Assembly (NCBI GenBank): GCA_029881495.1
Contig: JAOUMJ010000004.1
Location: 28,476-92,475, forward strand
DNA: 64,000 nucleotides
Direction of reading: 5' to 3'
Source: Nitrospinota bacterium
Lineage (GTDB): Bacteria; Nitrospinota_A; UBA7883; JACRGQ01
How positions within the stretch are numbered: the first letter of the stretch is position 1; each line of letters begins with the position of its first letter. Made by a program: the position numbers and the translations under genes. The notes under the pieces were generated by a model. The model was not told where the DNA came from and ran no database searches. It was given only the letters and a program-made list of their open reading frames with translations. Positions 6,773-46,184 of the stretch are shown piece after piece.

Positions 6773-7579
6773 TTGAGCGCACTGCATTTCGAATCTGCCG
6801 GTTTCGGCGAACCGATAATTTTCATCCACGGCTGGGGTGTGAGTTCGGCGGTTTGGAAAGAGGAGGCCGACTACTTCTCGAAGAGGTTCCGCGCAGTGAC
6901 GGTAGATCTACCGGGACACGGAAAGTCGGCGCCGGTCGACGTAGAGCTGACCATTAAGCTCTGCGCGGAGCTGTTAAAGGAGCTAATGAAAAACGAGGGG
7001 CTGGAAGGCGCGCACCTTGTCGGGTGGTCGCTTGGCGCGGAGGTTGCCGCGCGTACGGCGATGATCTCCGGAGGCAGATTGGTCCGCTCACTCGTATCGG
7101 TCGGAGGAACGCCGTGCTATGTCGCTCCGACGCAGAAGGACGAGTGGGGTATGCCTGAGGGGAAAGCAAAATATTTCCAGCGACAGCTTGAGCGCGATTT
7201 CTCGGTGAGCCTTTCGATGTTCATACACACATTCTTTGAGGCGGAGAAGGATATTTCAGCCGAGCGGGCGGCGTTCATCAAATCGGTTTTTTTCGGCGAA
7301 GATTTTCCGCCGGACCAAAGGTCTGCCATTGACCTCTTAAAAAGTCTCTATGACGAGGATCTGCGCGGGGAATTGAAGGCCTCTCCTCTCACATTGCCTC
7401 TCTTGGTATGCCATGGCGACCGTGATATGATTGTCCCGATTGGAGCGGCCGAACAATGGAGCGCTCTCCTTTCGCAGGTGAAGATCGTGAAATTTGAAAA
7501 TTGCGGGCACGCCCCGTTCCTTACAAACAGCGAGCTATTTCGGGAAACCGTTGAAAATTTCATAACGGCATTAGGATGA
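6773..7579 (+). CDS. bioH: alpha/beta hydrolase, probable pimeloyl-ACP methyl ester esterase
   Basis: IIFIHGWG and GWSLGA (GxSxG nucleophile elbow) motifs; sits directly upstream of bioC and bioD/bioA. TTG start; stop overlaps bioC ATG. Confidence 0.6.
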   Translation: MSALHFESAGFGEPIIFIHGWGVSSAVWKEEADYFSKRFRAVTVDLPGHGKSAPVDVELTIKLCAELLKELMKNEGLEGAHLVGWSLGAEVAARTAMISGGRLVRSLVSVGGTPCYVAPTQKDEWGMPEGKAKYFQRQLERDFSVSLSMFIHTFFEAEKDISAERAAFIKSVFFGEDFPPDQRSAIDLLKSLYDEDLRGELKASPLTLPLLVCHGDRDMIVPIGAAEQWSALLSQVKIVKFENCGHAPFLTNSELFRETVENFITALG

Positions 7580-8352
7580 CCAATACCGACAAGATAAAAC
7601 GGGCCTTCGGGAGGAGCGCCGGAAGCTACGAAAGATTCGGCACCTTGCAGCGCGAGGTATCCGCGCGCCTCGTGCGGGAATTCACTCCGTTTGATGGCTC
7701 CCCGCAACGCGCTCTCGACATCGGATGCGGCACAGGGTTCACTTCGACCGATATGAAGAAGCGTTGGCCCACGGCTGACATTCATCCGCTCGACCTCGCT
7801 TTGCCGATGGCGAAACGTACTCACGCGGCGGGCTTCATAAAAAGTGTCGCCGGCGACGCATCATCCCTCCCTTACGCGGAGGCTCTCTTTGATGTAGCGG
7901 TATCTTCACTCGCACTGCAGTGGGGGAGCGATTATGAAAGAATATTTTCCGAAGTCTCCCGTACGCTGAAGCCGGGGGGACTCTTTTCGTTCAGCGCCCT
8001 TCTCCCCGGAACGCTGAGGGAGCTTCGAGGCGCTTACGATTCGGCTAGCAGGGAGTGCACCGGCAAGGGGGCGAATTTCCCCTCCTTTGCTTCGATAGAG
8101 GAAATGACTGCGCCTCTTGAAACCGGGGGATTCCGCAATTTGTCGATACATGCCGAGAGCGTGGTGAAGAGCTACTCCACAGTTGAAGAGATGATGCGGA
8201 CATTGAAAGGTATAGGAGCTACAAATCCGGCAAGACCGGAAAATCCTCCGAGGCGTGACGTGCTTGCGCGGACCATGGAATTTTATCCCGGGCGCAACGG
8301 CCATGTGGAGGCGACATATGAAATCTCCTACATCTCCTGCGTGAAGGGGTAG
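7576..8352 (+). CDS. bioC: malonyl-ACP O-methyltransferase
   Basis: SAM-binding motif LDIGCGTGF; N-terminal FGRSAGSYERFGTLQREV typical of BioC; biotin gene context. Confidence 0.7.
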   Translation: MTNTDKIKRAFGRSAGSYERFGTLQREVSARLVREFTPFDGSPQRALDIGCGTGFTSTDMKKRWPTADIHPLDLALPMAKRTHAAGFIKSVAGDASSLPYAEALFDVAVSSLALQWGSDYERIFSEVSRTLKPGGLFSFSALLPGTLRELRGAYDSASRECTGKGANFPSFASIEEMTAPLETGGFRNLSIHAESVVKSYSTVEEMMRTLKGIGATNPARPENPPRRDVLARTMEFYPGRNGHVEATYEISYISCVKG

Positions 8353-8356
8353 CGGT

Positions 8357-19110: not shown

Positions 19111-21408
19111 ATGGCGAAGCTCAATTTTGGTTCGAAACTAGCGCTTAAGGTAATAAAGTACCGTTTCCAGATCATCATACTCACCGTTCTTTCAGTAGCG
19201 GTCTCATCCGCCGGTCTTGCATATCTCACCTTCTCCAGCGACAGCAGGGCGTATTTCGGTCCCGATAATCCACAGCTAAAGGCTCTCGAAAAGCTGGAGA
19301 ATACATATTCTAGGGACGACTCCGTTCTCCTTGCGATTGCGCCGAAGGACGGTAACATCTTTTCCGCCAGGACACTTTCGATTATCGGCGAGATAACCGA
19401 TGAATTCTGGAAGCTCCCCTTCTCCAGCAGGGTGGAATCCCTCACCAACTACCAGCATACTTCGGCAGACGGCGACGAGCTTATAGTGGAGAACCTTGTA
19501 AAGGAGGCCGATGAACTGACGGGCGCTGACCTTGACCGCATAAGGGAGATCGCCGTAAACGAACCGTTCCTGAAGGATCGCCTTGTTTCTTCCAAAGGGA
19601 GCGTTGCCGGCGTCGTAGCTCTTTTCAGAATGCCGGAGAATAAGAACGAGGCGACAAAGGAGGTCGTTGGGAAAGTTCGTGCGTATGTGAAGGAGGTTAA
19701 AAAGAAATACCCCGACATGGAAATATACCTGGTCGGGAGCCTGATGGTGGATACCGCTTTCGCGGAAGCGGGGGAGGACGACATGAGGAGCCTCATCCCT
19801 ATCATGTTCGCGATAATGGTTTTCTTCATGTGGGTGATGCTAAGGTCGGTTACTGCAATGCTTGTCACCACGCTCGTAATTATTTTTTCGTCGGTCGTCT
19901 CCATGGGGATTGCGGGCTGGCTCGGAATCGTGCTTACCGCTCCGTCGGCGAATTCGCCTATAGTCATACTCACGCTTTCGATAGCGGATTCGATACATGT
20001 CCTCGTTACCATGCTGCAGGAGATACGAAAAGGGAGATCGCGCGAAGAGGCGATAGTGGAATCGATGCGCATAAACCTTTCTCCGGTGTTTCTGACCACC
20101 ATTACCACTTCGATAGGTTTTCTCAGCATGAACTTTTCGGATTCTCCCCCTTTCTGGGATCTCGGAAATATAGTATCGATCGGGGTGCTGGTAGCTTTTA
20201 TATATTCGGTTACGTTTCTCCCTGCGATGATGGCCATCCTCCCGATCAAGGTGGGAGAAGAGAAAACTTTCGGCCCGCCGATAATAGACCGGTTCGCCGA
20301 TTTTGTCGTATCCAAAAGTACGGCTCTTATGTGGGGTATGGCTCTTTTTATAATTTTTTCCGTATCGGGCATCTCCAGGATAGACGTGAACGATCTGTAC
20401 CTCGATTATTTCGGAAAGAAGTTCCAGTTCAGGAAGGATACCGATTTCATTGTGGCAAATCTCACCGGTGTAAGCATGGTCGAATACGACCTCTCGTCGG
20501 GTGAAGAGGGGGGGGTATCCTCTCCAGAATATCTTGACACTCTTGAGCGTTTCACTGTTTGGCTCCTTGCCCAGCCGGAAGTAAAACAGATAAGCGGATT
20601 CCATGACGTCATGAAGAGGCTGAACAAAAGCATGCATGGCGACGACCCCGCCTATTACAAGGTACCGGACAGGAGGGATCTTGCCGCGCAGTACCTCCTT
20701 CTGTACGAGATGTCGCTCCCGTTCGGGCTCGATATGAACAACATGATAAACGTCGACAAGTCCTCCACAAGGTTCAGGATATCGCTTATCGACATTTACA
20801 ACCGGGAGATACGGCAGTTCGAAAGGAGGGCGACCGCGTGGCTCGAAGAGAATGCTCCGCCGTCGATGCATGTTGACGGCACAGGGATGTCGATCATCTT
20901 CGCGCACATCACCGACAGGACTATCAACTCAATGTTCAGGGGTACCGCCTTCGCCCTCTTTCTTATATCTGGGCTACTCATACTCGCGTTCATGAATCTC
21001 CGCATAGGGTTGATAAGCCTCCTGCCGAACATAGTTCCGGCGTTGATGACATTCGGTCTATGGGGTTATACGGTGAGCCAGGTCGGTCTCGCCGCTTCGG
21101 TCATCGCGGCGCTCAGCCTCGGGATAGTGGTGGACGACACGATACACTTTCTCTCGAAATATCTTAGGGCAAGAAAGGAGCTCGGCCTAAGTCCAGAAAT
21201 GGCGGTGAGGTACTCCTTCCATACGGTCGGCAGGGCGCTTGTAATAACTTCAGTCATACTCGTTGCCGGATTCGGGATATTGACCCTCTCAAATTTCAAG
21301 GTGAATTCAAACATAGGCACCCTCACCGCGATAGCGATAGCGATAGCGCTCATAGTCGATTTTCTTTTCCTTCCCGCCCTTCTGCTTAAACTTGAAAAGA
21401 GAAGATGA
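19111..21408 (+). CDS. MMPL/SSD-type RND superfamily exporter (HpnN-like)
   Basis: 765 aa; two repeats each of a periplasmic domain followed by a 5-6 TM bundle, typical of MMPL exporters. Confidence 0.75.
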   Translation: MAKLNFGSKLALKVIKYRFQIIILTVLSVAVSSAGLAYLTFSSDSRAYFGPDNPQLKALEKLENTYSRDDSVLLAIAPKDGNIFSARTLSIIGEITDEFWKLPFSSRVESLTNYQHTSADGDELIVENLVKEADELTGADLDRIREIAVNEPFLKDRLVSSKGSVAGVVALFRMPENKNEATKEVVGKVRAYVKEVKKKYPDMEIYLVGSLMVDTAFAEAGEDDMRSLIPIMFAIMVFFMWVMLRSVTAMLVTTLVIIFSSVVSMGIAGWLGIVLTAPSANSPIVILTLSIADSIHVLVTMLQEIRKGRSREEAIVESMRINLSPVFLTTITTSIGFLSMNFSDSPPFWDLGNIVSIGVLVAFIYSVTFLPAMMAILPIKVGEEKTFGPPIIDRFADFVVSKSTALMWGMALFIIFSVSGISRIDVNDLYLDYFGKKFQFRKDTDFIVANLTGVSMVEYDLSSGEEGGVSSPEYLDTLERFTVWLLAQPEVKQISGFHDVMKRLNKSMHGDDPAYYKVPDRRDLAAQYLLLYEMSLPFGLDMNNMINVDKSSTRFRISLIDIYNREIRQFERRATAWLEENAPPSMHVDGTGMSIIFAHITDRTINSMFRGTAFALFLISGLLILAFMNLRIGLISLLPNIVPALMTFGLWGYTVSQVGLAASVIAALSLGIVVDDTIHFLSKYLRARKELGLSPEMAVRYSFHTVGRALVITSVILVAGFGILTLSNFKVNSNIGTLTAIAIAIALIVDFLFLPALLLKLEKRR

Positions 21409-21455
21409 CCGGATGCCGGTTTTTAAAAAGTGTAGAATGGGTGAGCAGCGAAGAG

Positions 21456-22289
21456 ATGGCGCGCCCTTCATATTTTAATAGGAGAATTGCCGTGAGATTA
21501 TTTGCGATTCCGTTTTTTATTTTCCTGACACTCGTCGCGCCTGCGACAGCAGAGACGCCGGAGGAGAAAGGGCTCGCCATAGCGCTGGAAGCGGAGAAGC
21601 GCGACAGGGGATGGGGGGATTCCACATCCGAGCTTGAGATGATCCTTATGAACCGGCATGGGGAGACCAGTATTCGCCAGATGAGGGGGGAGTCGCTTGA
21701 AGTGGAGGGTGACGGCGACAAATCGCTGATGGTTTTCGATAATCCCCGCGACGTGAAAGGCTCCGCCATGCTTACATGGTCGCACAAGAATGGGGACGAC
21801 GACCAGTGGCTCTACCTTCCGGCCCTTAAACGTGTGAAGAGGATATCGTCTTCCAGTAAATCGGGCTCCTTCATGGGTTCGGAGTTCTCATATGAAGACC
21901 TCTCCAGCAGGGAGGTGGAGAAGTACAGCTACCGCTTCCTTCGGGAAGAACCGTGCCCGTGCGAAGAGCTGAAATCGCTTACCTGTTTTGTCTCTGAAAG
22001 TTTTCCGGTGGATAAAAGCTCCGGATACACAAGAATTGTCAGCTGGCTCGATACGAACGACTACCGGTCGTGCAAGGTTGAGTTCTACGACAGGAAGAGC
22101 TCCCATTTGAAAACTCTTCTGTCCAGCAATTATAAAAGATTTCTCGACAAATTCTGGAGGCCGATGAGGCTCGACGTCACGAATCACCAGTCGGGGAAGA
22201 GTACAACGCTGGAGTTCAAGGAATACAAATTTAAAACGGGATTAAAAGATTCGGATTTCAATCAGAACGCTCTCATGAGATTCAAGTAG
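21456..22289 (+). CDS. periplasmic LolA-like / outer-membrane lipoprotein-sorting-like protein (putative)
   Basis: Signal peptide (VRLFAIPFFIFLTLVAPATA); soluble ~250 aa beta-rich protein; start overlaps MMPL stop. Family assignment tentative. Confidence 0.4.
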   Translation: MARPSYFNRRIAVRLFAIPFFIFLTLVAPATAETPEEKGLAIALEAEKRDRGWGDSTSELEMILMNRHGETSIRQMRGESLEVEGDGDKSLMVFDNPRDVKGSAMLTWSHKNGDDDQWLYLPALKRVKRISSSSKSGSFMGSEFSYEDLSSREVEKYSYRFLREEPCPCEELKSLTCFVSESFPVDKSSGYTRIVSWLDTNDYRSCKVEFYDRKSSHLKTLLSSNYKRFLDKFWRPMRLDVTNHQSGKSTTLEFKEYKFKTGLKDSDFNQNALMRFK

Positions 22290-28609: not shown

Positions 28610-28815
28610 AAGGATAACACGCGATTTTCAGAATGTCTTTTTCGCGATGCATTTTAAATATGAGGGAAGGGTCATCCATGTTTTTTCCCGGTTTTTGGAA
28701 CATCGCCTCGCCAATCCCGGGGAGTTACCCAAACCTGCAATATGGTTTAAACTTGTTATACTTGTTTGCAACGGCTTATCCAGCCGGTATGGATCGAAAT
28801 AGGGAGCATTCGATT

Positions 28816-30957
28816 ATGGATGACAGGTTATTACGGAGATTGGCGGGCGTCAGGCCGGCATATATTGTTCTTGTGTCGGTGCTTGCCTCTGTCAGCCTCA
28901 CCCTGGTAATTGTCTCCATATGCAGTCTCTATTTTTACGGTCGCGTTACTTTCGAGTTTATCGCTACCGGGATCATCGCCTCTTTCTTTGTGGCTTTCTT
29001 GGTCGTCATGTTTCTGCAAAAAATTACGAATAGCATTATGGAAGTGAAGCTCCAGTCGGATTCCATGATCCAATCCCTGGAGAAAAATATCTCCAATATC
29101 ATCCAAAAGAGCAATGACGTCTTCTACAGGACCAACCTGAAGGGGGAGATAGTCTGGATATCTCAATCGGTTCAAAAGGTGATGGGATATTCTCCGGAAG
29201 AGTTGATCGGGAAGGATATTTCCAGTTTTTACGTAAATCCGGAAGAGCGATTGAGGCTCCAGGAGTTGCTGAGGGAGAATGGCGGATTCGTAAAGAATTT
29301 TGAGGCAAAACTCCGGAAGAAGGATGGGAGCGAGATATGGCTCTCAACGGACACCGGTTATTATTACGACGAACACGGGAGCATCGCCGGAGTTGAAGGG
29401 GAGACCAAGGATGTAACCGAAAAGAAGGAGATCGAAAACGCCCTGAGGCTCTCCGAGGAAAAGTACAGAACGCTTATCGAAAATATACAGGAGGGGATAT
29501 TCCTCCTTCAGGAAGGGAAGTTCGTCTACGTAAATGACAGGTTTGCCGAAATGACCGGCTACAAGGTAGCCGAGATAATTGGAAAGGAGTTTGCCCCTTT
29601 CGTGGCCCCGGAAGACAGGAACAAGGTTTTCGAGCGGTACAAAAGGAGGTTGCAGGGGGAAGACGTTCCAAAGGAGTACGAGTTCCGGCTCCTGCATAAG
29701 GATGGCAATGCGCGGGTGGTTGTGCATATGCTGGTGAGTCTCACCCAGTATCAGGGAAAACTGGCAACCACCGGTACGATCACCAATGTATCCGAAAAGC
29801 GGAAGATGGAAACTCTCTATCAAAAAGCCCAAAAACTCGAATCTGTGGGATTGCTGGCTGGCGGCATTGCCCATGATTTCAACAACCTCCTCACCTCGAT
29901 ACTGGGCGGTCTCTCACTGCTGAAGCTTACTATCGACAAGAGCGGAGATGACGAGGATTTGCAGATAGTCACGGAATCTATAAACGCCACTAAGCGCGCG
30001 AAAGACCTCGCAAGACAGCTCCTTTCATTTTCGAAGGGGTCGGAGCCTGTAAAGAAGCTGTTAAGCCTCAAAGATCTCCTGATGGACTGCGTGTCGTTTT
30101 CTCTTCGGGGTTCGTTATCGAATTATTCGTTCGATATTGTCGACGACCTCTGGAACGTGGAGGCCGATGAAGGACAGCTTAACCAGGTATTCAATAATTT
30201 GATAATCAACGCGGAACAGTCAATGCCGGACGGCGGCGTGATAGATGTCTGCGCCTACAATATAAACATATCGTCGCACAGCGGGATACCTCTTCCACCA
30301 GGGAAGTATGTTCAGATTACGGTTGAGGATGCCGGCCACGGAATACCGGATGAATATCTCGACAAGATATTCGATCCCTACTTCACCAGTAAACAGAAGG
30401 GGAGCGGGCTCGGCCTTGCGTCAGCATATTCGATAATCAGGAACCACGGCGGATTTATCGATGTTGAATCCGATCTCGGAAAGGGGAGCAGGTTCCATGT
30501 ATTCGTTCCGGCCAGCGATTTGGCGATAAATGAATACGCCTCTTCTCCAGCGCTTGTGAAAGGCCATGGGAGGGTTCTTGTTATGGATGATGAGGATGTC
30601 GTAAGGAATGTTCTCGGCAGGATGTTAAAGAGGCTGGGGTACGAGACGGAGTATGCCGTCGACGGCGAAGAGGCCGTCAGCATTTACAGGCAAAACCTCG
30701 AAAACGGCACCCGGTTTAAGGCGATAATTACCGATCTCACGATACCCGGCGGGATGGGGGGAGAAAAGGTCTTGAAAATCCTCAAGGAGGCCGACCCTGA
30801 GATCAAGGCGATAGCAACAAGCGGCTACGCGCTTGATCCCATAATGTCGGATTATCCCAAATACGGATTTGCCGGAATTCTTCAAAAACCTTTTGAAATG
30901 GAAAACCTAAGCGTGGTACTGGAAAAGGTGACGGCGGAGAACGGCGGGAAATCATAA
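28816..30957 (+). CDS. hybrid sensor histidine kinase (membrane N-terminus, two PAS, HisKA, HATPase_c, receiver)
   Basis: H-box GIAHDFNNLLTSILGG; N/G boxes (NNLIINAEQSM, DAGHGIPDEYLDKIF, GSGLGLASAYS); C-terminal REC (VLVMDDE ... ITDLTIPGGMGG). ATG 28816 chosen by RBS; ORF track start is 28633. Confidence 0.85.
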   Translation: MDDRLLRRLAGVRPAYIVLVSVLASVSLTLVIVSICSLYFYGRVTFEFIATGIIASFFVAFLVVMFLQKITNSIMEVKLQSDSMIQSLEKNISNIIQKSNDVFYRTNLKGEIVWISQSVQKVMGYSPEELIGKDISSFYVNPEERLRLQELLRENGGFVKNFEAKLRKKDGSEIWLSTDTGYYYDEHGSIAGVEGETKDVTEKKEIENALRLSEEKYRTLIENIQEGIFLLQEGKFVYVNDRFAEMTGYKVAEIIGKEFAPFVAPEDRNKVFERYKRRLQGEDVPKEYEFRLLHKDGNARVVVHMLVSLTQYQGKLATTGTITNVSEKRKMETLYQKAQKLESVGLLAGGIAHDFNNLLTSILGGLSLLKLTIDKSGDDEDLQIVTESINATKRAKDLARQLLSFSKGSEPVKKLLSLKDLLMDCVSFSLRGSLSNYSFDIVDDLWNVEADEGQLNQVFNNLIINAEQSMPDGGVIDVCAYNINISSHSGIPLPPGKYVQITVEDAGHGIPDEYLDKIFDPYFTSKQKGSGLGLASAYSIIRNHGGFIDVESDLGKGSRFHVFVPASDLAINEYASSPALVKGHGRVLVMDDEDVVRNVLGRMLKRLGYETEYAVDGEEAVSIYRQNLENGTRFKAIITDLTIPGGMGGEKVLKILKEADPEIKAIATSGYALDPIMSDYPKYGFAGILQKPFEMENLSVVLEKVTAENGGKS

Positions 30958-36211: not shown

Positions 36212-36446
36212 GGCTACTCGAAAGAAGCCCTTTTCGACAGAGCCGTCCGGGGAAAACAGCCTCTCTCCCCCAACGAAATCTAAAAAGAGACTGTAACGGA
36301 TGTTGCGACACTCGTATTTCCGTTACAGACAAATATAGTTATTTTGTATATAATTTTCCAATCTGCGCTTTAGCACAGTTTAAACCAGCGGTGTCTCTCT
36401 TTTTGCGGTTTTAAGCTGGTTTTATTTTATTTATGGGGAGAGCTAA

Positions 36447-38444
36447 ATGAGTTCGTATTTTAAGAGTTCTGAATCTTGTGTCAGGTTTTTGATGCGTGTA
36501 AATATTTTGATTTTATCTCTGTTCATTAGTGCTGTCTTTAATCCATCGCCTGCGTATGCGGAAGTGCAGGTGGTTGCGTCGAACGATCTCTTCGATATGG
36601 ACATAGTCGACCTCATGGAACTTGCTGTCACCACCGCGTCGAGAAAATCCGAGAAGCTTGTGCATACCTCCTCGGCAGTATATGTAATTACATCCGAGGC
36701 TATCAGGAACAGCGGAGCGACGACCATACCCGAAGCGCTGAGACTTGCGCCCGGGCTTCAGGTAGCGAGAATGGGATCGCACAGCTGGGCGATAACGTCG
36801 CGCGGTTTCAACAATGCATACGCAAACAAGCTCCTCGTATTGATAGACGGGCGGAGCGTATACACACCTCTCTTTGCGGGGGTCTACTGGGATGAGCAGG
36901 ATACCCTGATGGAGGATATCGACAGGATAGAGGTGGTCCGAGGTCCCGGCGGCACCATGTGGGGGGCGAACGCCGTGAACGGGGTGATAAACATCATCAC
37001 GAAAAAGGCAAACGAAACGGAGGGGACACTCACCTATATCGGAGGGGGCGATTTTGAAAAGAAATTTGCCGGTTTAAGGTATGGCGGGAAGCTGGGTGAA
37101 AACAGCTCGTACCGCATGTTCACGAAATATGACGACAGAGGCTCACTGGTAAAAAATGGTACTGATGAAAACATAAACGACGATTGGGATACCGGGAGAT
37201 TCGGATTCAGGATAGATTCAGAACCTTCCAGTACGAACACGTTCATGTTGCAGGGTGACATCTTCAAAAAGAGGAATGATTACACCTCAGACTCGCAGAC
37301 ACTGAAGTACGGCGGGGATATCGTCGGAAATTGGAGCCATACCATCTCGGAGAAATCAAAGACCGATTTGCAGTTTTATTACGACAGGACCGAAATGTTC
37401 GACGAGGATTCCTCGAGGATAATCGAAACGCTGGATCTTGATTTTCAGCACCACCTCTCTGCGGGTGACAGGCATGATTTGAGCTGGGGAGCCGGGATGA
37501 GAAACATCAGGTTTGATAATGAAAATACCTCCCCCCCCATTTTCTACGATCCGGCGAAGCGGGAGGACAGCCTGACAAACGTTTTTTTGCAGGACAAGAT
37601 AGCCGTTTCCCCCGGCCTGTTTTACTGGACTGTCGGGGCAAAGGTTGAGAACAATCCCTACACGGGGGTTGAGTACCAGCCGAATACCAGGTTCCTTTAC
37701 ACACCGGGTGAGAAGAACGTCTTTTGGGGTGCGGTATCAAGGGCTACCAAAACCCCCACGCGCGCCGACATGGACATGGGGATGTATAACTCAAAAGGGG
37801 GGCTTTTCCTAGTTCCGAAGAAGGATATGGCGTCGGAAATTCTCGTCGCCTACGAGCTTGGCCACCGCGCGATGCCGTCGGAAAAACTTTCATTTGATAC
37901 CACCATCTTCTACAACGACTACGACAAACTTGAAACTACCGAATGCGGATTTGCCGGCGGTTCCATGCAGTGCTACCAGGACAACCAGATGTACGGAACC
38001 ACCCACGGATTTGAAGCGGCCGCGAATTGGAGCCCGGTCCATGACTGGGTGCTCACCGCTACCTACACGTTCCTTGAGATGGATATGAAACTTCTCGATG
38101 GTTCCGAATCGATATACGCCACCGACGAGATGGAGTGGGAAAACCCCAAACAGCAGGCAAGGCTCAACTCCTATATCAAGCTCCCCTATAACATGCAGTT
38201 TGATTTGGCGGTATTTCATTCCGCCCCCGTAAGTTTCCAGCTATACACCGGCGAATACAAGCTGGCAGGCTACACGCGCGTAGATACCAGGCTGTCATGG
38301 AACGCGGGGAACGGATTTGTCACCTCGCTTTTTGTACAGGACGTGCTTAACGAATCAGGGCGCGGGGAATATAAAGGGGCAAGTTACGATCCATCTACTG
38401 ACGTGGAAAGAAATGTATATCTGAAAGTTTCGTTTGAAAAGTAA
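36447..38444 (+). CDS. TonB-dependent outer membrane receptor
   Basis: Signal peptide; plug domain motifs (VYVITSEAIRNSGATTIPEALRLAPGL, NKLLVLIDGRSVYTP, IEVVRGPGGTMWGANAVNGVINIITKK); ~600-aa barrel. RBS ggggagag before ATG. Confidence 0.85.
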   Translation: MSSYFKSSESCVRFLMRVNILILSLFISAVFNPSPAYAEVQVVASNDLFDMDIVDLMELAVTTASRKSEKLVHTSSAVYVITSEAIRNSGATTIPEALRLAPGLQVARMGSHSWAITSRGFNNAYANKLLVLIDGRSVYTPLFAGVYWDEQDTLMEDIDRIEVVRGPGGTMWGANAVNGVINIITKKANETEGTLTYIGGGDFEKKFAGLRYGGKLGENSSYRMFTKYDDRGSLVKNGTDENINDDWDTGRFGFRIDSEPSSTNTFMLQGDIFKKRNDYTSDSQTLKYGGDIVGNWSHTISEKSKTDLQFYYDRTEMFDEDSSRIIETLDLDFQHHLSAGDRHDLSWGAGMRNIRFDNENTSPPIFYDPAKREDSLTNVFLQDKIAVSPGLFYWTVGAKVENNPYTGVEYQPNTRFLYTPGEKNVFWGAVSRATKTPTRADMDMGMYNSKGGLFLVPKKDMASEILVAYELGHRAMPSEKLSFDTTIFYNDYDKLETTECGFAGGSMQCYQDNQMYGTTHGFEAAANWSPVHDWVLTATYTFLEMDMKLLDGSESIYATDEMEWENPKQQARLNSYIKLPYNMQFDLAVFHSAPVSFQLYTGEYKLAGYTRVDTRLSWNAGNGFVTSLFVQDVLNESGRGEYKGASYDPSTDVERNVYLKVSFEK

Positions 38445-38468
38445 ACCGGGCAGGGGAGCATCGGAATT

Positions 38469-39023
38469 TTGAAAAGAAAGAACGGAGAGATACATGTCAT
38501 CGCGGCGGTAATCTCCCTACTTCTCTGCTCATCCGCCTTTTCAAGTGAGAAGGTATTCACCGAGTACCAGGTAAAATCCGTTTTCATATACAACTTCGCG
38601 AAGTTCGTCGACTGGCCCGAACAGGCATTCAGTAGCGAGGCCTCCCCTGTAAACGTATGCGTGCTTGGCGAAGACCCTTTCGGCAACGAGATGGACCTCC
38701 TCACAAAAAAATCGGCCAGGGGGAGAGGATTCGACGTTCTCAGGTTCAGCAAGTTCAAGGATAAGGAGGAGCTGAAATCGTGCCACCTCCTCTTTATCAG
38801 TAAATCGGAAGAAAGCCGTATCGGCTCGATAATCGAGTCCCTTTCGGGATTCGGTGTCTTAACCATATCCGATGTGGAAGGTTTCATGGATTCCGGGGGG
38901 ATCATTGAGTTCACGATGAGGGAGAACAAGGTTCGCTTCGCCGTAAATCTGAAGGCCTCCGAACAGGCAGGGATAAGAATAAGCGCGAAGCTTCTGAAAC
39001 TTGCCGAGGCGGTGAAAAAATAG
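38469..39023 (+). CDS. YfiR-like DUF4154 periplasmic protein (putative)
   Basis: Signal peptide; conserved N-terminal EYQVKSVFIYNFAKFVDWPE-type segment; TTG start with GGGGAG RBS; stop 3 nt before kinase start. Confidence 0.55.
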   Translation: MKRKNGEIHVIAAVISLLLCSSAFSSEKVFTEYQVKSVFIYNFAKFVDWPEQAFSSEASPVNVCVLGEDPFGNEMDLLTKKSARGRGFDVLRFSKFKDKEELKSCHLLFISKSEESRIGSIIESLSGFGVLTISDVEGFMDSGGIIEFTMRENKVRFAVNLKASEQAGIRISAKLLKLAEAVKK

Positions 39024-39025
39024 CC

Positions 39026-41296
39026 ATGCCGAAAACCAGGGACTTCACGATAAAGCAGAAGCTGGGGCTCATCATCGGGGTGACCACTGTTGTGGCGCTC
39101 CTTCTCGCTTCGGTGTCGTTCATCCTCTACCAGAGATACATGCTAAGGCAGACCATAGTGCAGGATCTCTCTTCGCTAGCGGAGATCACGGGAAACAACA
39201 ACGCCGCTTCACTCGCGTTCATGGACACCGGTTCGGCAAGGGATACGCTCGGTGGCCTGAGCGCCAGGCCGTCTATCGAAGGGGCCGCTATATACTCCGC
39301 TGACGGCGAGCTGTTCGTGAAATATATAAAGATGAACGCGGATTTTGACGTTCCTGAATACCCAGGCGAGGACGGGCAGAGCTTTTCAGGCGGGAGGCTT
39401 ATCCTTGCAAGGGGGATAATATTCGACGGTGAGAGGATAGGTACCTTTTTCCTGGCGGCAAACATGGACGAGCTGAACGCACTGACAATAAAAAGTTCGA
39501 TGACAGTTCTGCTGGTAATGTTTATTTCGTTGATAGCCTCAATGATCGTCTCTTCAAGGCTTCAGGGGCTTATTTCAAATCCGGTAGCGGCCCTTTCAAG
39601 CCTCGCCATATCGGTTTCTGAGAGCAAGGATTATTCCGTCCGCGCAAAAAGCGACAGCCGCGACGAATTCGGCGACCTCATGAACGCGTTTAACGAGATG
39701 CTTGAACAGATCCAGTCAAGGGATCAAAAGCTGAGGGAACATGGCAAAGAACTGGAAAAGGAAGTTGAGGAGCGTACAAGAGAGTTGAACATCGCCAATA
39801 CGAATCTAAACGAAGAACTATTGGACCGCAGAAAGGCGGAACAGGCGCTTGCCCGCACGCTAAGCGAACTGGAAACGATAATGAACGCAAATCCCGACAT
39901 CCTTTACGTCGTAAACATGGAAGGGAAACTGATCAAATGGAACAACGGACTGGCAATGCTCACTGGGCTGGGGCCGGACAAGCTGATGCTACGGCCGATA
40001 ACCGAATTCATTCATGAAGATGACCGGGATATCGTCATGAGGAGGGTAAAGGATGTATTCCAAAATGGGGAGGCAACGGTCGAAGCGAGATTCTTCGACA
40101 GGAACGGCGACCTTTTCCCTTACTACTGCAACGGAATTGTTCTCAGGAACGAAAAGGGGGAAGTGACCGGCTTTACCGGAACGGGGCGCGACATCTCCAT
40201 ACTGAAGGAGACAGAGCTAGAACTGCGAAGGGCAAAGGATAGCGCCGAGGAGGCCACAAGGCTAAAGGACAAGTTCGTATCGCTAGTTTCCCACGACCTC
40301 AAAGGGCCTCTTGGAAGTCTTTTGGGATTTCTGGAGCTTATCAAAAGGGACTCTGCGAATGGCATCTCTGCGGAATCGGGAAAGTACCTAAGCATCGCCC
40401 TAGATTCCGGCGAGAAAATGCTCACATTGATAGATGATCTCCTCAACATCAGCAGGCTCAAGACCGGAAACATCATGCCGCACTACACATTCAACGATCT
40501 TCACATTATCATGTTGAAGATTCTTTCCGGCCTCGCCTATCCCGCGTCCCTGAAGGGTGTGACAATACAGAACGACGTAAGACCCGGCATCCGCGTATAT
40601 GCCGATAAACAGCTTCTGCAGGAGGTTTTGCAAAACCTTATTTCAAATGCGGTGAAGTTCTGCAATCAAGGGGACACTATCAGGATATTCCTTCCGTCAG
40701 GAAACGGGGGGCAAATTTCCGTTGCCGACACCGGGCAGGGGATCGCCCCCGAAAGGATAGGTAAACTCTTTAATTACGAAGAGAAGACCTCCACTATAGG
40801 CACCGCAGGTGAGACCGGAACGGGGCTGGGGCTCCCGCTTTCAATGGACATCATAAAGGCGCACAAGGGGAACATAGCCATAAGTTCCGAAGTTGGCATA
40901 GGGAGCACTTTCACCGTTTCGCTCCCGATAGTGAAGCCTGTCATTCTCCTTGTGGAAGACGACATAAACCTGATGGAACTCGTAAAGTTCATGCTTGAAG
41001 GGCTGGATGTGTTTATTATGGAAGCGAGGGACGGACAGGAAGCACTCGATATTCTCAGCGAGAAAACCCCTCATCTCATTCTCTCCGACATAATGATGCC
41101 GCGAGTGGATGGTATGGAACTGCTCGAAAAGGTGAGAAATACCGAACTCCTTAAAGATATCCCTTTTATAGTAATGACAACTTCCAGGGAGCCTGAAGTA
41201 TCGGAGAGAGCTTTTCAGCTTGGAGCGGACGACTTCCTGGTAAAACCGGTCACGCAAAACGAAATGATCCCGCGTATCAAGAGATTTATTTTATAG
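39026..41296 (+). CDS. hybrid sensor histidine kinase (periplasmic sensor, HAMP, PAS, HisKA, HATPase_c, receiver)
   Basis: Two TM helices flanking a ~130-aa periplasmic domain; H-box SLVSHDLKGPL; G boxes DTGQGIAPE, GTGLGLPLSMDI; REC ILLVEDD ... ILSDIMMPRVDG. Confidence 0.85.
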   Translation: MPKTRDFTIKQKLGLIIGVTTVVALLLASVSFILYQRYMLRQTIVQDLSSLAEITGNNNAASLAFMDTGSARDTLGGLSARPSIEGAAIYSADGELFVKYIKMNADFDVPEYPGEDGQSFSGGRLILARGIIFDGERIGTFFLAANMDELNALTIKSSMTVLLVMFISLIASMIVSSRLQGLISNPVAALSSLAISVSESKDYSVRAKSDSRDEFGDLMNAFNEMLEQIQSRDQKLREHGKELEKEVEERTRELNIANTNLNEELLDRRKAEQALARTLSELETIMNANPDILYVVNMEGKLIKWNNGLAMLTGLGPDKLMLRPITEFIHEDDRDIVMRRVKDVFQNGEATVEARFFDRNGDLFPYYCNGIVLRNEKGEVTGFTGTGRDISILKETELELRRAKDSAEEATRLKDKFVSLVSHDLKGPLGSLLGFLELIKRDSANGISAESGKYLSIALDSGEKMLTLIDDLLNISRLKTGNIMPHYTFNDLHIIMLKILSGLAYPASLKGVTIQNDVRPGIRVYADKQLLQEVLQNLISNAVKFCNQGDTIRIFLPSGNGGQISVADTGQGIAPERIGKLFNYEEKTSTIGTAGETGTGLGLPLSMDIIKAHKGNIAISSEVGIGSTFTVSLPIVKPVILLVEDDINLMELVKFMLEGLDVFIMEARDGQEALDILSEKTPHLILSDIMMPRVDGMELLEKVRNTELLKDIPFIVMTTSREPEVSERAFQLGADDFLVKPVTQNEMIPRIKRFIL

Positions 41297-41714
41297 GCCG
41301 CTACAGGCGGTTGTACTTCGGTTCACATTTTTCGATTCCTTTGTTCGATAAACGTACAGCAATCCAGATATTTTGCGTATTGACGGTACCGGAGTTCAGA
41401 AATTATGAAACTTCCAGATATTGTTAAGCTTAAGCCTTATGAAACCAAATCCTTGCATGTGGTAAAATGTACTTGGTTGGAACTTCCATCCGAAATATGC
41501 GCACTAAACGGTGGAAATTCCCTAAAGGGGAGAAATCAGATTTGTTGCGAAATGGAACGTTTTTTTTACTGATTTTCTGCATCATGGAAGCTACGAAAGG
41601 GAGAAGCTGATCTCTCTGGATGAAAGCGACGGCATAAAAAACCGTCAATTTCCCGTATGGGTGTACGTAATGCAAGGAGTAGCCTGAGACAGATCAGGAT
41701 CTTTCGGTGTAAAT

Positions 41715-44700
41715 ATGACCTCAAAGCCGCAATCAGGGATAGCAAAGCTGATTTTTTCCCCTTGGGGAGCCGTATTGGTATGGAGTGTCTTTATCGCCAT
41801 CTCCCTTCTGTGGAACATCAGCCACCATAGGAAAGACACCCTGGAAATGGCGGTCAAGGAAGCAACCATCCACTTCAACAAGGATCAGGCTTTCAGGTAC
41901 TGGGTTACTTCGCATGGCGGCGTTTACGTCCCTGTGGATGAAAGAACACCTCCAAATCCTCTTCTTTCGCATGTGCCGGAAAGGGATATCGAAACCAAAT
42001 CGGGAAAAAAACTTACCCTGATGAATCCCGCTTACGCCTTGCGCCAGTTGATGAACGATTACAGCGACAAATACGGGATAAAAGGGCGCATTACGAGTCT
42101 GAAACTCCTTAACCCGGCAAACGCTCCCGACGAGTGGGAAAAGAAAGCGCTAAAGTCCTTCGAGAATGGCGCGGCTGAAGCGGTTGAATTCACCAAGATC
42201 GACGGCGTTCCGTTTCTGAGGTTCATGCGTCCGATGATCACCGAAGAGGGATGTCTTAAATGTCACGCGCATCAAGGGTACAAGGTCGGCGATGTGAGGG
42301 GTGGGGTCGGGGTAATCCTTCCGGTACAGCCGTATATGGAAATAGAGAAAAGCGAAGTTGCATCAATAGCCATCTCGCACAACCTGTTCTGGATAATCGG
42401 GCTTTTTGCCATCGGGTTCGTATCGAGGCTGAATAAAAAGAGGATACAGGAAAAGAGCGAGGCCGAACAGGCAGTTTTCCTTTTCAGGACCCTTCTTGAC
42501 CGCTCCAGCGACGCCATCACCGTTGTTGATCCCGACAACGGAAGGTTCCTCGATTTCAATGAAAAGTTCTGCGCTAATCTCGGTTACGGACGCCATGAGA
42601 TCATGGGGAAGAGCATTATTGATATCGATTCAACCATCAAGGATATCTACGAGTGGAACAAGCGAATTGAAGAGCTGGAGAAACATGAAGAGCTTGTTTT
42701 TGAGAGTGTGCATGTCCGGAAGGATGGCTACAAATTTCCGGTAGAGGTCAGCGTAAAGCTTGTTCGGGAAAAAGGGAAGAGGTTTATCATTGGAGTCACC
42801 AGGGATATTACGGAGAGAAAGCGCGCGGAAGAGGCGCTCTTGCGGAGCGAGGAAAAATACAGGCTGTTGGTGGAGAGCGGTCTCCTGATCGCGTGGGAAG
42901 CGAAGTTCCCTTCGCGGCAGTTCACCTTTGTAAGCTCGCATGCCGGAAAGCTCACAGGCTACAGCGAAAAGGAGTGGTGCAAGCAGGATTTCTGGGTGAA
43001 CCATCTTTATACCGAAGACAGGGAGAAGGCAATAAAACAGAGCGGGGAGCTTGTCAAAAAAGGTGAGGGTCACACACTCGAATATCGGATGATCGCGAAG
43101 GACGGCAAGGTTATCTGGTTCAAGGATATGGTGAGCGTCATAAAGGATTCGGCCTCGGCGCCTGTCGGCCTGCGCGGGTTCCTTACCGATATAACAGAAA
43201 GAAAAAACATGGAAGATCTTGCCAAGAGCAGGGGGGAATCCCTCGCCAGAGCGCAGGAGATAGCGCACATAGGGAGCTGGAGCTGGGATGTTCAAACAGG
43301 CCATCTCTACTGGTCCGACGAAAATTTCAGGCTCTTCGGATTCTCTCCCCAGGAATTCGAGCCTACGTATGAAAAGTTCCTTGAAATTTTACATCCATCC
43401 GATAGAGAGAGCGTGATCCAGGCCGTCAATCTCACGCTGGAGGGGGGCGGGAATTACGATATTGAACATAGGATCGTCCGTCCCGACGGCACGGTAAGGC
43501 TGATACATGGGCAGGGGAGGGTTGAATACGGGAGGGACGGAACGCCTGCAAGGATGTATGGCACGGGACACGATATCACCGATCAGCGGAAATCCGAGGA
43601 GACCATGCGTCTGCAGAGCGAGATGATGGCGAACATGGGGGAGGGGGTTCTGCTGATAAAGGCCGACAACATGAAAATAGTTCACGCGAATTCCAGACTT
43701 GAGAAGATGTTCGGCTATGGTGAGGGGGAGCTTTTGGACAAAGAGGTCGCCATACTTAACGCGCCCACGGAACGCGATCCGAAGGAGACCGCGAGGGGAA
43801 TAGTCACTCTGCTGCAGGAAAAAGGTTTCTGGCAGGGGGAGGTTCACAATATCAAAAAGGACGGTTCCACGTTCTGGTGTTTTGCGTCAATCGCGGGGTT
43901 CGACCACCAGGAGTACGGGAAGGTCTGGATATCGGTGCATGCCGACATAACCGAAAACAAACGCGCAGAGGAAGAAAAACTTCTTTTCAGGAGGCTTGTC
44001 AACAGATCTAACGACATGATCCTTCTGGTCGACCCGGAGAGCGCGCTCATTCTCGATATAAACGACAAGGGGTGCGAGCACCTCGGATATGACCGTGAAG
44101 AGTTGATGAAGATGCGGGTAATAGATTTCGACGCAACCGTAAGTGAAGTTGAAGCGTGGCAGGCACACACTGCGGAGCTGGAAGCTAAGGATTCACTCCT
44201 CTTTGAAAGCGTTCATATAAGAAAAGACGGCGCCCGGATACCGGTAGAGATAAACGTAAAGCTGGTTTCGGAGAGCGGCAGAAGCTTTATAATCGGCGTG
44301 GTTCGGGATATATCCGACAGAAAGCGCGCCGAAGAAGAGCTGAGAAACAGCCAGAAGATACTCGCCCGCGCCCAGAAGATAGCAAATATTGGAAACTGGA
44401 CATGGGATGTGCCGGATCAGAAGTTCAGCTGGTCGGATGAGCTCTATCACATACTCGGTTTAAGCGAGAAGAAGGGGAAGGCGGATTACCTGGCGATACT
44501 GGAGACGACCCACCCGGAGGAGAGGGAAGGATTGAAGCGGGCAATTTTCGATGCGCTCGAAGAGAAAAAGCCATGGAACCTTGATCACAGAATAGTTCTT
44601 GAGGATGGGAATATTCGCGTAGTGCATCACCAGGGGGAGGTCACCTTGAACAGCGATGAGGAGGTCCTCCTCATCGAAGGGACGTTGCAGGATATTACCG

Positions 44701-46184
44701 AACGGAAGGAGGCCGAGCGCGCCCTGGAAAAGTCGGAGAGAAATATCAGGGCGATAGTCAAATCGGTCGGAGAAGGGATAGTCGTTGCCAATCGTGATTC
44801 GCGGGTGACATTCGTGAACGGAGAGCTCTGCGAAATTTTCGGCTGTTCCGAAGAGGAGATTATCGGACAGCCGCTCGAAATACTTATGCCGGAGCGTTTC
44901 AGGGAATCTCACAGGACGTCATTCAAGAGATATCTGGAAGGTGGGAAAGCGAGGGTCGTAGGGAAGAGGATCGAACTGGAAGGCCTTCGAAAGGATGGCT
45001 CGGAGTTCCCGCTTGAACTGAGGATCGAGGAGTCGGTATGGGATCACCAGGAGAAATTCTTCGTAGGCGCGATAAGGGATATTACTGAAAGCAGGCGAAT
45101 CTTCGAGGAGCTCCGAAAGGCGAAGGAAGAGGCTGAAGGGGCCACAAAACTGAAGGACAAGTTTGTGTCGATGGTCTCGCACGACCTCAAGGGGCCGCTT
45201 GGGAACATGATGGGATACCTGAAACTGCTGTTGAACGAGCAGGCCGAGCCGCTGGGGGAAGGGGCAAATGTCATCCTCGGGTCCGCGCTGAAATGCGGCG
45301 AGGGGATGATAAGCCTGATAGAAGAACTCCTGAATATCTCCCGGCTTAAGACCGGTAAGCTGGTTCCGCAGATGAGATTCCACGATCTGTATGTTGTCTC
45401 ATTGAGAGCGCTTTCGGGTCTCAGCTATCTCGCCCTCCAGAAAGGGATCGAAATTGTTAACGAAATAAAGCCCGGTGCGAGGGTCTTCGGAGACGAGCAG
45501 CTCCTTTCGGAGGTTGTCGCTAACGTCCTTTCTAACTCGATAAAATTCAGCGGGCGCGACAGCAGGATAACGATATCCCACTCCGCAGGAGAGAAGACAC
45601 TCCTTGCCATCAAGGATAACGGAGTGGGAATTCCGCCCGAAAAAATTGAATTCCTGTTTGATTATGAGGTGAAGACATCGACCGTCGGAACCGCCGGGGA
45701 GACCGGCACCGGCCTCGGTCTCCCGCTGGCAATGGATATCGTCAAGGCGCATGGGGGGGATATATCGGTGGATTCAAAGCCGGATGCCGGGAGCAGCTTC
45801 ACTATTGCGCTTCCGGTCGTGACGCCGAGGATCCTCGTGGCGGATGACGATGAAGGTGTACTCCATATCATCAGAACGATCCTTGCGGATGAGTCGGTGG
45901 AGATAATCGAAGCGCTCGACGGCAAGGAGGCGATGGAGCTCATCAGGGAGAAGGCTCCGCACTTTATAATCGCCGATTTCCACATGCCTGAGATCGACGG
46001 CCTAAAGCTCCTCGAAAGGGTGAAAAAAGAGAAGTCGATCAAGAACGCGGTATTCTTTATCATGACAAGCGACAAGGATACAGAGATAAAGGAGAGGGCG
46101 TTCCAGCTTGGGGCGGATGATTTTCTAAACAAACCGATATTGAAGGGGGACCTCCTCCCCAGGGTGAGGAGATATATAATTTAG
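41715..46184 (+). CDS. giant multi-PAS hybrid sensor histidine kinase with N-terminal CxxCH heme-type periplasmic domain
   Basis: 1489 aa; periplasmic N-domain with CLKCH motif (near 42252-42266); TM helix; at least five PAS/PAC modules; H-box SMVSHDLKGPL; HATPase_c; C-terminal REC. Confidence 0.85.
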   Translation: MTSKPQSGIAKLIFSPWGAVLVWSVFIAISLLWNISHHRKDTLEMAVKEATIHFNKDQAFRYWVTSHGGVYVPVDERTPPNPLLSHVPERDIETKSGKKLTLMNPAYALRQLMNDYSDKYGIKGRITSLKLLNPANAPDEWEKKALKSFENGAAEAVEFTKIDGVPFLRFMRPMITEEGCLKCHAHQGYKVGDVRGGVGVILPVQPYMEIEKSEVASIAISHNLFWIIGLFAIGFVSRLNKKRIQEKSEAEQAVFLFRTLLDRSSDAITVVDPDNGRFLDFNEKFCANLGYGRHEIMGKSIIDIDSTIKDIYEWNKRIEELEKHEELVFESVHVRKDGYKFPVEVSVKLVREKGKRFIIGVTRDITERKRAEEALLRSEEKYRLLVESGLLIAWEAKFPSRQFTFVSSHAGKLTGYSEKEWCKQDFWVNHLYTEDREKAIKQSGELVKKGEGHTLEYRMIAKDGKVIWFKDMVSVIKDSASAPVGLRGFLTDITERKNMEDLAKSRGESLARAQEIAHIGSWSWDVQTGHLYWSDENFRLFGFSPQEFEPTYEKFLEILHPSDRESVIQAVNLTLEGGGNYDIEHRIVRPDGTVRLIHGQGRVEYGRDGTPARMYGTGHDITDQRKSEETMRLQSEMMANMGEGVLLIKADNMKIVHANSRLEKMFGYGEGELLDKEVAILNAPTERDPKETARGIVTLLQEKGFWQGEVHNIKKDGSTFWCFASIAGFDHQEYGKVWISVHADITENKRAEEEKLLFRRLVNRSNDMILLVDPESALILDINDKGCEHLGYDREELMKMRVIDFDATVSEVEAWQAHTAELEAKDSLLFESVHIRKDGARIPVEINVKLVSESGRSFIIGVVRDISDRKRAEEELRNSQKILARAQKIANIGNWTWDVPDQKFSWSDELYHILGLSEKKGKADYLAILETTHPEEREGLKRAIFDALEEKKPWNLDHRIVLEDGNIRVVHHQGEVTLNSDEEVLLIEGTLQDITERKEAERALEKSERNIRAIVKSVGEGIVVANRDSRVTFVNGELCEIFGCSEEEIIGQPLEILMPERFRESHRTSFKRYLEGGKARVVGKRIELEGLRKDGSEFPLELRIEESVWDHQEKFFVGAIRDITESRRIFEELRKAKEEAEGATKLKDKFVSMVSHDLKGPLGNMMGYLKLLLNEQAEPLGEGANVILGSALKCGEGMISLIEELLNISRLKTGKLVPQMRFHDLYVVSLRALSGLSYLALQKGIEIVNEIKPGARVFGDEQLLSEVVANVLSNSIKFSGRDSRITISHSAGEKTLLAIKDNGVGIPPEKIEFLFDYEVKTSTVGTAGETGTGLGLPLAMDIVKAHGGDISVDSKPDAGSSFTIALPVVTPRILVADDDEGVLHIIRTILADESVEIIEALDGKEAMELIREKAPHFIIADFHMPEIDGLKLLERVKKEKSIKNAVFFIMTSDKDTEIKERAFQLGADDFLNKPILKGDLLPRVRRYII

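Follow-up and report, generated by a model that had tools for sequence, protein, structure and literature searches.

A 64-kb stretch of DNA from a Nitrospinota bacterium (64,000 nt of contig JAOUMJ010000004.1; hereafter the window, to the full length of which all window coordinates refer) encodes, one after another, a TonB-dependent receptor, a YfiR-like protein and a hybrid histidine kinase (Table 1). We propose with moderate confidence that this triad is an envelope-spanning signaling module derived from YfiBNR, in which the YfiR-like protein regulates the kinase via its periplasmic CHASE8 domain, the receptor supplies the signal, and the output is a phosphorelay. Related loci from at least 12 phyla show the same adjacency of the three genes in 85-90% of cases, regardless of whether they are anchored on the YfiR-like protein or on the receptor, and such recurrence from both anchors is far beyond what chance would give.

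Two samples of loci were used for this comparison. The first one, anchored on the YfiR-like protein, comprised 80 loci on one-genome-per-species contigs from Acidobacteriota, Nitrospirota, Desulfobacterota, Verrucomicrobiota, Planctomycetota, Latescibacterota, Armatimonadota, several Proteobacteria, and others; the second one, anchored on the receptor, comprised 60 loci with enough sequence on metagenome contigs. In the first sample a homologous sensor was encoded directly downstream, on the same strand, in approximately 72 of the 80 loci (median gap 2 nt, with many 4-nt overlaps), and a homologous receptor directly upstream in at least 57 (median gap 17 nt); the receptor gene was divergently transcribed in seven loci and absent from a few. 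Seen from the receptor, the YfiR-like gene came next in 51 of the 60 loci, and in 42 of these 51 the sensor gene was present as well. The conservation of the triad as a unit, a prerequisite of the reading given in a first-pass annotation made from the sequence alone, is thus borne out by the locus counts from both anchors. Clustering of 1515 open reading frames (ORFs) from 160 loci yielded only three recurrent families, namely the receptor, the YfiR-like protein, and the signaling proteins, while no inner-membrane transporter, binding protein or TonB/ExbBD components were conserved among these ORFs. An OmpA/YfiB-like protein was neither found in the window neighborhood of the triad nor conserved in the 160 loci. 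The YfiR-like family itself is large: at 50% identity, 29,940 clusters match its profile, and the 12,153 that do so at E <= 1e-30 come from Acidobacteriota, Nitrospirota, Nitrospinota, Desulfobacterota, Verrucomicrobiota, Planctomycetota, and other phyla. Some loci depart from the simple layout: tandem receptor paralogues precede the YfiR-like gene in L001, L003, L016, and L047, two YfiR-like genes stand in tandem in L003, and several database proteins of 340-380 amino acids (aa) contain two DUF4154 domains per chain (P0147-P0153).

In the window, the receptor and YfiR-like genes are separated by 24 nt and the YfiR-like and kinase genes by 2 nt, as read directly from the sequence, and the same three genes are called in two public assemblies of the same Nitrospinota metagenome-assembled genome; the tight three-gene unit with these gaps, described in the first-pass annotation, agrees with both the ORF coordinates and the public gene calls. 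No terminator-like hairpins were found on the plus strand between the three genes, and a candidate sigma-70-like promoter precedes the receptor gene (Table 1). Promoter-like sites in this region are no more numerous than in shuffled sequences, so the site is weak evidence only. From the tiny gaps, the absence of hairpins, and the single promoter-like site, co-transcription of the triad appears likely. The flanks are formed by housekeeping genes, with those for RuvA, YebC, and RuvB upstream, and those for a second hybrid kinase, followed by MutL and Hda, downstream. A scan of the whole window at Rfam gathering thresholds gave no matches, and in permissive scans the sole hit was Alpha_RBS at chance level (E 0.55); a riboswitch or another known RNA was therefore rejected both ahead of the receptor gene and in the 418 nt that follow the kinase gene. 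A Fur box upstream of the unit was rejected as well, the best match (12 of 19 positions) being typical of background windows, so that iron regulation is not hinted at. An antisense ORF (38384-38929, minus strand, 181 aa) overlaps nearly all of the YfiR-like gene and is probably spurious.

The YfiR-like protein matches DUF4154 (Pfam PF13689) over the entire profile (positions 1-143 of 143, E 3.7e-44, 150.7 bits with a gathering score of 24.9) and the NCBIfam model NF053591 (TOL_0243) with 147.8 bits, above the cut-off of 125; a profile match to solved YfiR was also obtained (1.4e-12). Its AlphaFold2 model, with a predicted local distance difference test (pLDDT) score of 92.5, has the YfiR fold, a mixed beta-sheet with helices on its flanks, and YfiR chains take all of the first 15 places among its PDB matches (TM-score 0.70-0.81, the best ones 0.75-0.81). 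The profile match and the predicted fold thus confirm the initial assignment of the middle protein as a DUF4154/YfiR homolog, and an identical protein in the database is annotated as 'YfiR family protein [Nitrospinota bacterium]'. It is a distant homolog, with approximately 24% identity to YfiR of Pseudomonas aeruginosa and a score below the equivalog cut-off of NF053586 'regulatory sequestration protein YfiR' (49 vs 85 bits). The signal peptide is predicted at approximately residues 1-26, as the sole hydrophobic segment (residues 8-26) is followed by AFS/SE.

After YfiR, the closest folds to the modeled protein are single lobes of type I periplasmic binding proteins (3lft, 3lkv, and a Rhodothermus solute-binding protein). 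Together with the position of the YfiR-like gene directly after the receptor gene, this could mean that the protein serves mainly in transport, binding or chaperoning the receptor cargo in the periplasm, and that the kinase senses the same compound independently via CHASE8. We consider such a role improbable. The predicted single lobe is without the hinge that characterizes true binding proteins; the 160 loci have neither an inner-membrane permease nor an ABC partner in common; the junction between the YfiR-like and sensor genes is the tightest in the unit; and it is the sensor domain, and not the receptor, with which the YfiR-like protein strongly co-varies (see below).

The sensor half of the kinase is of the YfiN type. 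Residues 8-234 match positions 3-226 (of 390) of the DgcN/YfiN model with E 8.7e-23; the periplasmic domain, PAS/Cache-like, matches CHASE8 (6.8e-12); and the NCBIfam model NF053592 'sensor histidine kinase, YfiR-like protein-associated' is matched with 213.9 to 217.6 bits, above the cut-off of 194. The AlphaFold2 model of the sensor module (pLDDT 86.6) shows a single PAS/Cache-like domain between two long helices. A protein-database search with kinase residues 1-235 returned 26 mostly truncated proteins, which were used only as the alignment for this model. Its best fold matches are WalK (a construct of transmembrane helix (TM), extracellular domain, TM and HAMP; TMq 0.80), the periplasmic domain of a LapD ortholog, and CitA. 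The likeness to the PAS/Cache-like domains of WalK-YycH/YycI and LapD-LapG is one of fold only (8-15% identity). The WalK and LapD domains bind or are regulated by accessory proteins and not by small ligands; their partner proteins, however, are unrelated to DUF4154. In the cytoplasmic part of the window kinase, the H-box SHDLKGP (residue 422) and the acceptor Asp in LILSDIMMP (DIMMP at residue 688) are both intact. The topology fits an envelope-spanning module, with signal peptides on the receptor and the YfiR-like protein and the sensor domain located between two TM helices.

In a mirror-tree test, pairwise distances among the YfiR-like proteins were set against those calculated for the other components. 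The correlation with the periplasmic domain of the sensor was strong (r 0.70, Mantel p 0.0005, partial r 0.59 for 31 sequences with 30 loci; r 0.66 for a larger set of 66 sequences with 65 loci), while the kinase core of the same polypeptide gave only r 0.22-0.23, the bootstrap difference between the periplasmic domain and the kinase core being 0.44 (95% interval 0.31-0.57). Paired evolution of the YfiR-like protein with the periplasmic sensor domain, against a background of swapped outputs, is thereby shown; this co-variation is compatible with physical contact, though not proof of it. In the established pair, YfiR binds the periplasmic domain of YfiN, now classed as CHASE8, and represses YfiN through it (PMC4887326; PMC8085984). 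The initial suggestion that the YfiR-like protein acts on the periplasmic sensor of the kinase is therefore supported indirectly, by the homology to the YfiN half and by the co-variation, the contact and its sign being putative.

The output census, built from the fetched loci, shows the input module to be portable across outputs. The sensors were represented by 56 hybrid kinases (27 of them with a fused Hpt domain), 48 plain kinases, and a few direct CHASE8-HAMP-GGDEF(-EAL) fusions, which are still preceded by the receptor and YfiR-like genes. Among 34 REC proteins encoded directly after the sensor, 20 contain GGDEF (six of these also EAL), one contains an HD domain of the HD-GYP type, one a nucleotide cyclase domain, and one Hpt. 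The whole chain is present in a contig of the acidobacterial type, where independent precomputed Pfam calls read TonB-dependent receptor / DUF4154 / CHASE8-HAMP-histidine kinase-REC-Hpt / REC-GGDEF. Judging by these outputs, the family is mostly a cyclic di-GMP (c-di-GMP) route in which a phosphorelay separates the YfiN-like input from the cyclase. The partner of the YfiR-like protein was initially described as a kinase rather than a diguanylate cyclase, which holds only locally: in relatives the kinase usually feeds a REC-GGDEF regulator encoded beside it, and in some GGDEF is fused to the same sensor. Intermediate forms were observed at L002:2427-4553 and L069:8495-10378, where the receptor/YfiR-like pair is followed by CHASE8-HAMP-GGDEF-EAL or CHASE8-HAMP-GAF-GGDEF; these amount to a cyclase of the YfiN type that is combined with a TonB receptor in the place of YfiB. 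In a Desulfococcaceae locus (L075:11384-12454), the regulator encoded after the sensor is REC fused to an adenylate/guanylate cyclase domain and not to GGDEF.

The receptor has a Plug domain (E 1.3e-20) starting at residue 73, preceded by a hydrophobic N-terminus that is predicted to be a signal peptide. The NCBIfam model NF053590 (TOL_0244) is matched over positions 1-602 of 604 (604.6 bits, E 2e-181), and among solved structures CirA is closest (6e-17 over residues 57-492). The Pfam barrel model gave no match at E 0.01 in this receptor, but is found in its orthologs; the NCBIfam full-length match and the CirA alignment cover the barrel. Alignment with 23 context-linked orthologs gave 32-43% identity, and the mean column identity of the family (46%) is unusually high across phyla. 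No STN or FecA-type signaling extension was detected, with approximately 35 residues between the signal peptide and the plug and the NF053590 match beginning at residue 47. The family has a conserved N-terminal motif DL..(.)D/SL..LM.(I/L)(E/A)VT before the plug, in the form DLT..SLE(D/E)LMNIEVTSVSKK just ahead of it. The only paper found that names TOL_0244 is a proteomics study in which this protein was 7-fold up on the n-C28 alkane and alkane uptake was guessed as its function (PMC6304351).

These features allow for a more direct role, in which the receptor is a functional replacement of YfiB: upon ligand binding or TonB energization, its N-terminal segment or plug, exposed to the periplasm, would sequester the YfiR-like protein at the outer membrane and free the kinase, a protein relay for which delivery of a ligand would not be needed. 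The receptor does fill the outer-membrane slot in loci where no YfiB/OmpA-like gene is conserved; in YfiBNR, the part of YfiB that docks to YfiR is an extended N-terminal peptide (PMC4887326), and the N-terminal motif of the receptor family is strongly conserved just before the plug, in a protein whose overall conservation across phyla is unusual. However, a FecA-type N-terminal signaling domain is missing, the receptor co-varies with the YfiR-like protein far more weakly (r 0.20-0.21) than does the sensor domain, and only some residues of the pocket in which YfiR binds YfiB are kept. Similar N-terminal motifs also occur in other receptor families. On balance, we regard direct sequestration by the receptor as possible but doubtful. 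It would place the triads in a third, very widespread class of TonB-dependent cell-surface signaling, in which the receptor replaces YfiB and captures or releases a soluble YfiR-like adaptor, so that ligand occupancy at the surface or a change of conformation driven by TonB would feed directly into two-component and c-di-GMP output; this proposal is put forward tentatively. Equally speculative is the notion that such a class, distinct both from FecA-FecR-FecI and from pairs of SusC-type transporters and hybrid sensors, extends over many environmental diderm phyla.

According to the mechanism that we favor, the secreted YfiR-like protein would bind the periplasmic CHASE8 domain and set the activity of the sensor, much as YfiR does with YfiN, the output part of the sensor being a hybrid histidine kinase (HisKA-HATPase-REC) in place of GGDEF. 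The receptor would take the outer-membrane position of the lipoprotein YfiB and supply the input; import of a compound into the periplasm is the most likely way. The imported compound would then be read by the YfiR-like protein, with its half-periplasmic-binding-protein fold, or by its complex with CHASE8, and the activity of the kinase would change. Since no inner-membrane transporter is conserved and co-encoded, the imported molecule would be a periplasmic signal and not a cytoplasm-bound nutrient. P. aeruginosa YfiR has a surface pocket in which small molecules are bound weakly (PMC4887326). From the receiver domain of the kinase itself, the phosphoryl group would pass to a separate Hpt protein or regulator encoded elsewhere and then to the output, which, by analogy with most relatives, is probably a c-di-GMP enzyme (REC-GGDEF or REC-GGDEF-EAL). 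Of this scheme, the sequences show what the three proteins are, their homologies and topology, the conserved triad, the co-variation between YfiR-like protein and sensor domain, and the c-di-GMP outputs of relatives, while we infer the contact between the YfiR-like protein and CHASE8 and its sign, the role of the receptor, the ligand, and the output in this genome. Cell-surface signaling coupled to transport, as initially suggested, is a plausible conjecture, qualified by the missing FecA-type extension of the receptor and its weak co-variation with the YfiR-like protein.

Several observations weigh against this mechanism. First, the positions of Cys145 and Cys152 of YfiR, which form a disulfide essential for its folding and redox sensing (PMC4887326), are occupied by M140 and E147 in the window protein and were never Cys in 35 family members, so that the redox-switch mechanism of YfiR should not be transferred to this family; the equivalents of Cys71 and Cys110 are present (C64 and C105). 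Second, among the proposed YfiN-contact residues, E163 and I169 are altered (to A158 and S164), while other YfiN/YfiB-contact residues are kept (F151 as I, V176 as I, and L181, which is invariant). With the lost disulfide and the changed contact residues, the YfiN/YfiR interface is not simply transferable from YfiR. Third, the receptor score falls under the curated NF053590 cut-off of 645, even though the full-length alignment, the context, and the identity to context-linked orthologs indicate a divergent member of the TOL_0244 family. Fourth, the receptor ends in ...NVYLKVSFEK (38427-38444), without the C-terminal aromatic residue that is found in 21 of the 23 context-linked orthologs (F or W, typically TWRF), and the usual C-terminal signal for outer-membrane insertion is therefore atypical here. 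Fifth, the co-variation between the receptor and the YfiR-like protein is weak, and the strong one with the sensor domain could reflect a co-inherited input cassette with shuffling of output domains, and not contact. Finally, no response regulator or GGDEF gene was found within the window: a phmmer search with the REC domain hit only the two hybrid kinases and no separate REC protein, and an ad hoc Hpt profile built from the relatives detected no Hpt domain in either hybrid kinase or in any other ORF of the window with a length of 60 aa or more. The c-di-GMP output of the window triad is thus extrapolated from relatives.

Some of the same observations would agree with the receptor being a regulated target, and not the input. 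The YfiR-like protein and the kinase would then sense the state of the periplasm, such as envelope or redox stress, and the receptor gene would belong to the operon for the sake of co-expression or autoregulation, as many nutrient receptors are encoded beside their regulators. The weak co-variation of the receptor with the YfiR-like protein and the loci with a divergent (7 of 80) or missing receptor gene would be accounted for, canonical YfiR does sense periplasmic redox and envelope stress without a transporter (PMC4887326), and TOL_0244 behaves as a regulated protein in the alkane experiment (PMC6304351). We nevertheless find this reading rather unlikely. The cysteine pair responsible for redox sensing is missing from the family; a mere target would not be expected to be linked as tightly as is seen from both anchors, in at least 12 phyla and irrespective of the output domain; and the outputs are mostly c-di-GMP enzymes and not DNA-binding regulators that could control the operon.

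Among the known systems close to the triad is YfiBNR. In YfiBNR/TpbB of P. aeruginosa, DgcN-YfiR-YfiB of Escherichia coli, and HmsCDE of Yersinia pestis, a periplasmic YfiR-family protein is likewise encoded beside an inner-membrane TM-CHASE8-TM-HAMP sensor; AwsXRO of Pseudomonas fluorescens is another system of the YfiBNR type. The three-component envelope-spanning layout with an outer-membrane partner is shared, as is, in most relatives of the triad, the final c-di-GMP output. However, the outer-membrane partner in the triad is a TonB-dependent receptor of the 22-strand type and not the OmpA/Pal-like lipoprotein YfiB; the output of the window sensor is PAS-HisKA-HATPase-REC and not GGDEF; the Cys145-Cys152 disulfide is missing; and the gene order is receptor, YfiR-like protein, sensor. 

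Among TonB-dependent systems, FecA-FecR-FecI includes a receptor encoded with a periplasm-spanning signaling partner, and the triad receptor, also encoded with a signaling partner, could similarly relay its occupancy inward; in contrast to that system, the relay would reach a two-component kinase through a soluble YfiR-like protein. A FecA-like transducer was ruled out, as the receptor has no STN domain and a sigma/anti-sigma pair is missing: no anti-sigma or extracytoplasmic function (ECF) sigma factor gene was found in or adjacent to the window unit. Import-dependent two-component control is known for PfeA-PfeS/PfeR and PirA-PirS/PirR of P. aeruginosa and for SusC-type transporters with hybrid sensors of Bacteroides. 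As in the mechanism that we favor, the receptor imports a compound, which is detected in the periplasm by an inner-membrane kinase; however, these systems have no YfiR-like accessory protein, their sensor domains are different, and their regulators are transcription factors of the receptor gene and not c-di-GMP enzymes.

The association of the three families is already encoded in three NCBIfam models (NF053590, NF053591, and NF053592; release 20.0, June 2026), so the unit is not newly recognized. The three window proteins match this set end to end, with the gene order as in the relatives, and differ from it in that the receptor is below the cut-off, while the YfiR-like protein and the kinase sensor are above theirs. 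No described function was found for the three models, which are annotation tools, and a search for DUF4154 or YfiR in connection with histidine kinases or TonB receptors revealed no relevant experimental or bioinformatic papers. The locus thus adds a somewhat divergent member to a kind of system, a variant of YfiBNR, that is catalogued but whose function is unstudied.

YfiBNR is among the best-studied pathways leading from the envelope to c-di-GMP, while what it senses is still debated, and the version with a receptor is far more common in environmental bacteria. A dedicated TonB-dependent receptor beside a YfiR/YfiN-type sensor suggests that the signal is a defined, imported chemical, which offers a tractable way to find the ligand. 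If the receptor is truly the input, energized uptake across the outer membrane would be linked to decisions on biofilm formation and motility without a sigma/anti-sigma relay. For annotation, this means that receptors of this family should not be presumed to be nutrient importers, the alkane-uptake role proposed for TOL_0244 being an example.

Table 1. Triad genes, domains of the triad kinase, and associated features in the window.
Feature	Coordinates	Strand	Description
Candidate sigma-70-like promoter	36326-36354	+	CAGACA-17-TATAAT, 10 of 12 consensus matches, upstream of the receptor gene
TonB-dependent receptor gene	36447-38444	+	665 aa, ATG start (ORF list)
YfiR-like gene	38469-39023	+	184 aa, TTG start, GGGGAG before the start (ORF list)
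Hybrid kinase gene	39026-41296	+	756 aa, ATG start (ORF list)
Kinase sensor module, aa 1-235	39026-39730	+	TM1 15-33, CHASE8 ~34-156, TM2 157-175, HAMP 181-230
Kinase cytoplasmic PAS, aa 281-392	39866-40201	+	PAS_9, PAS, PAS_3, and PAS_4 matches, 1e-9 to 3e-13
Kinase transmitter	40265-40930	+	HisKA aa 414-481 (6e-14), HATPase_c aa 527-635 (1.5e-21)
Kinase receiver domain, aa 640-751	40943-41296	+	Response_reg, 2e-25
Second hybrid kinase gene	41715-46184	+	1489 aa, outside the conserved triad

The second hybrid kinase is encoded 418 nt after the triad kinase, with a promoter-like site between the two genes (41439-41468), and has the same arrangement in the second assembly. Its periplasmic Tll0287-like domain lies between TM helices 12-36 and 218-236, contains a heme c motif CLKCH (CxxCH) at residue 180, and is followed by approximately six PAS domains. 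The transmitter and receiver of this kinase are 49% identical to those of the triad kinase (175 of 356 positions without gaps, BLASTP, 5e-134), with the same H-box SHDLKGP. This ungapped identity suggests that two different periplasmic inputs feed into paralogous outputs, and the two kinases may share a downstream partner. A third, PAS-rich histidine kinase (28633-30957, plus strand) is encoded upstream of the genes for a PASTA protein and ribulose-phosphate epimerase; it has no receiver and shows only distant likeness to the core of the triad kinase.

Several other loci of the window, all on the plus strand, were noted in passing. A likely biotin synthesis cluster (6773-10480) encodes a BioH-like alpha/beta hydrolase, a BioC-like methyltransferase, and a BioD-BioA fusion of 707 aa, which combines a dethiobiotin-synthetase-type AAA_26 domain with a class-III aminotransferase. 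A transporter of the MMPL/RND type (765 aa) and a LolA-like protein (294 aa), whose gene comes next and overlaps that of the transporter, are encoded at 19111-22289, the pair having the look of a lipid-export system. Finally, a 527-aa protein (4486-6069) contains DUF7779 and C-terminal TPR repeats, in a layout that recalls signaling ATPases of the STAND/NB-ARC type.

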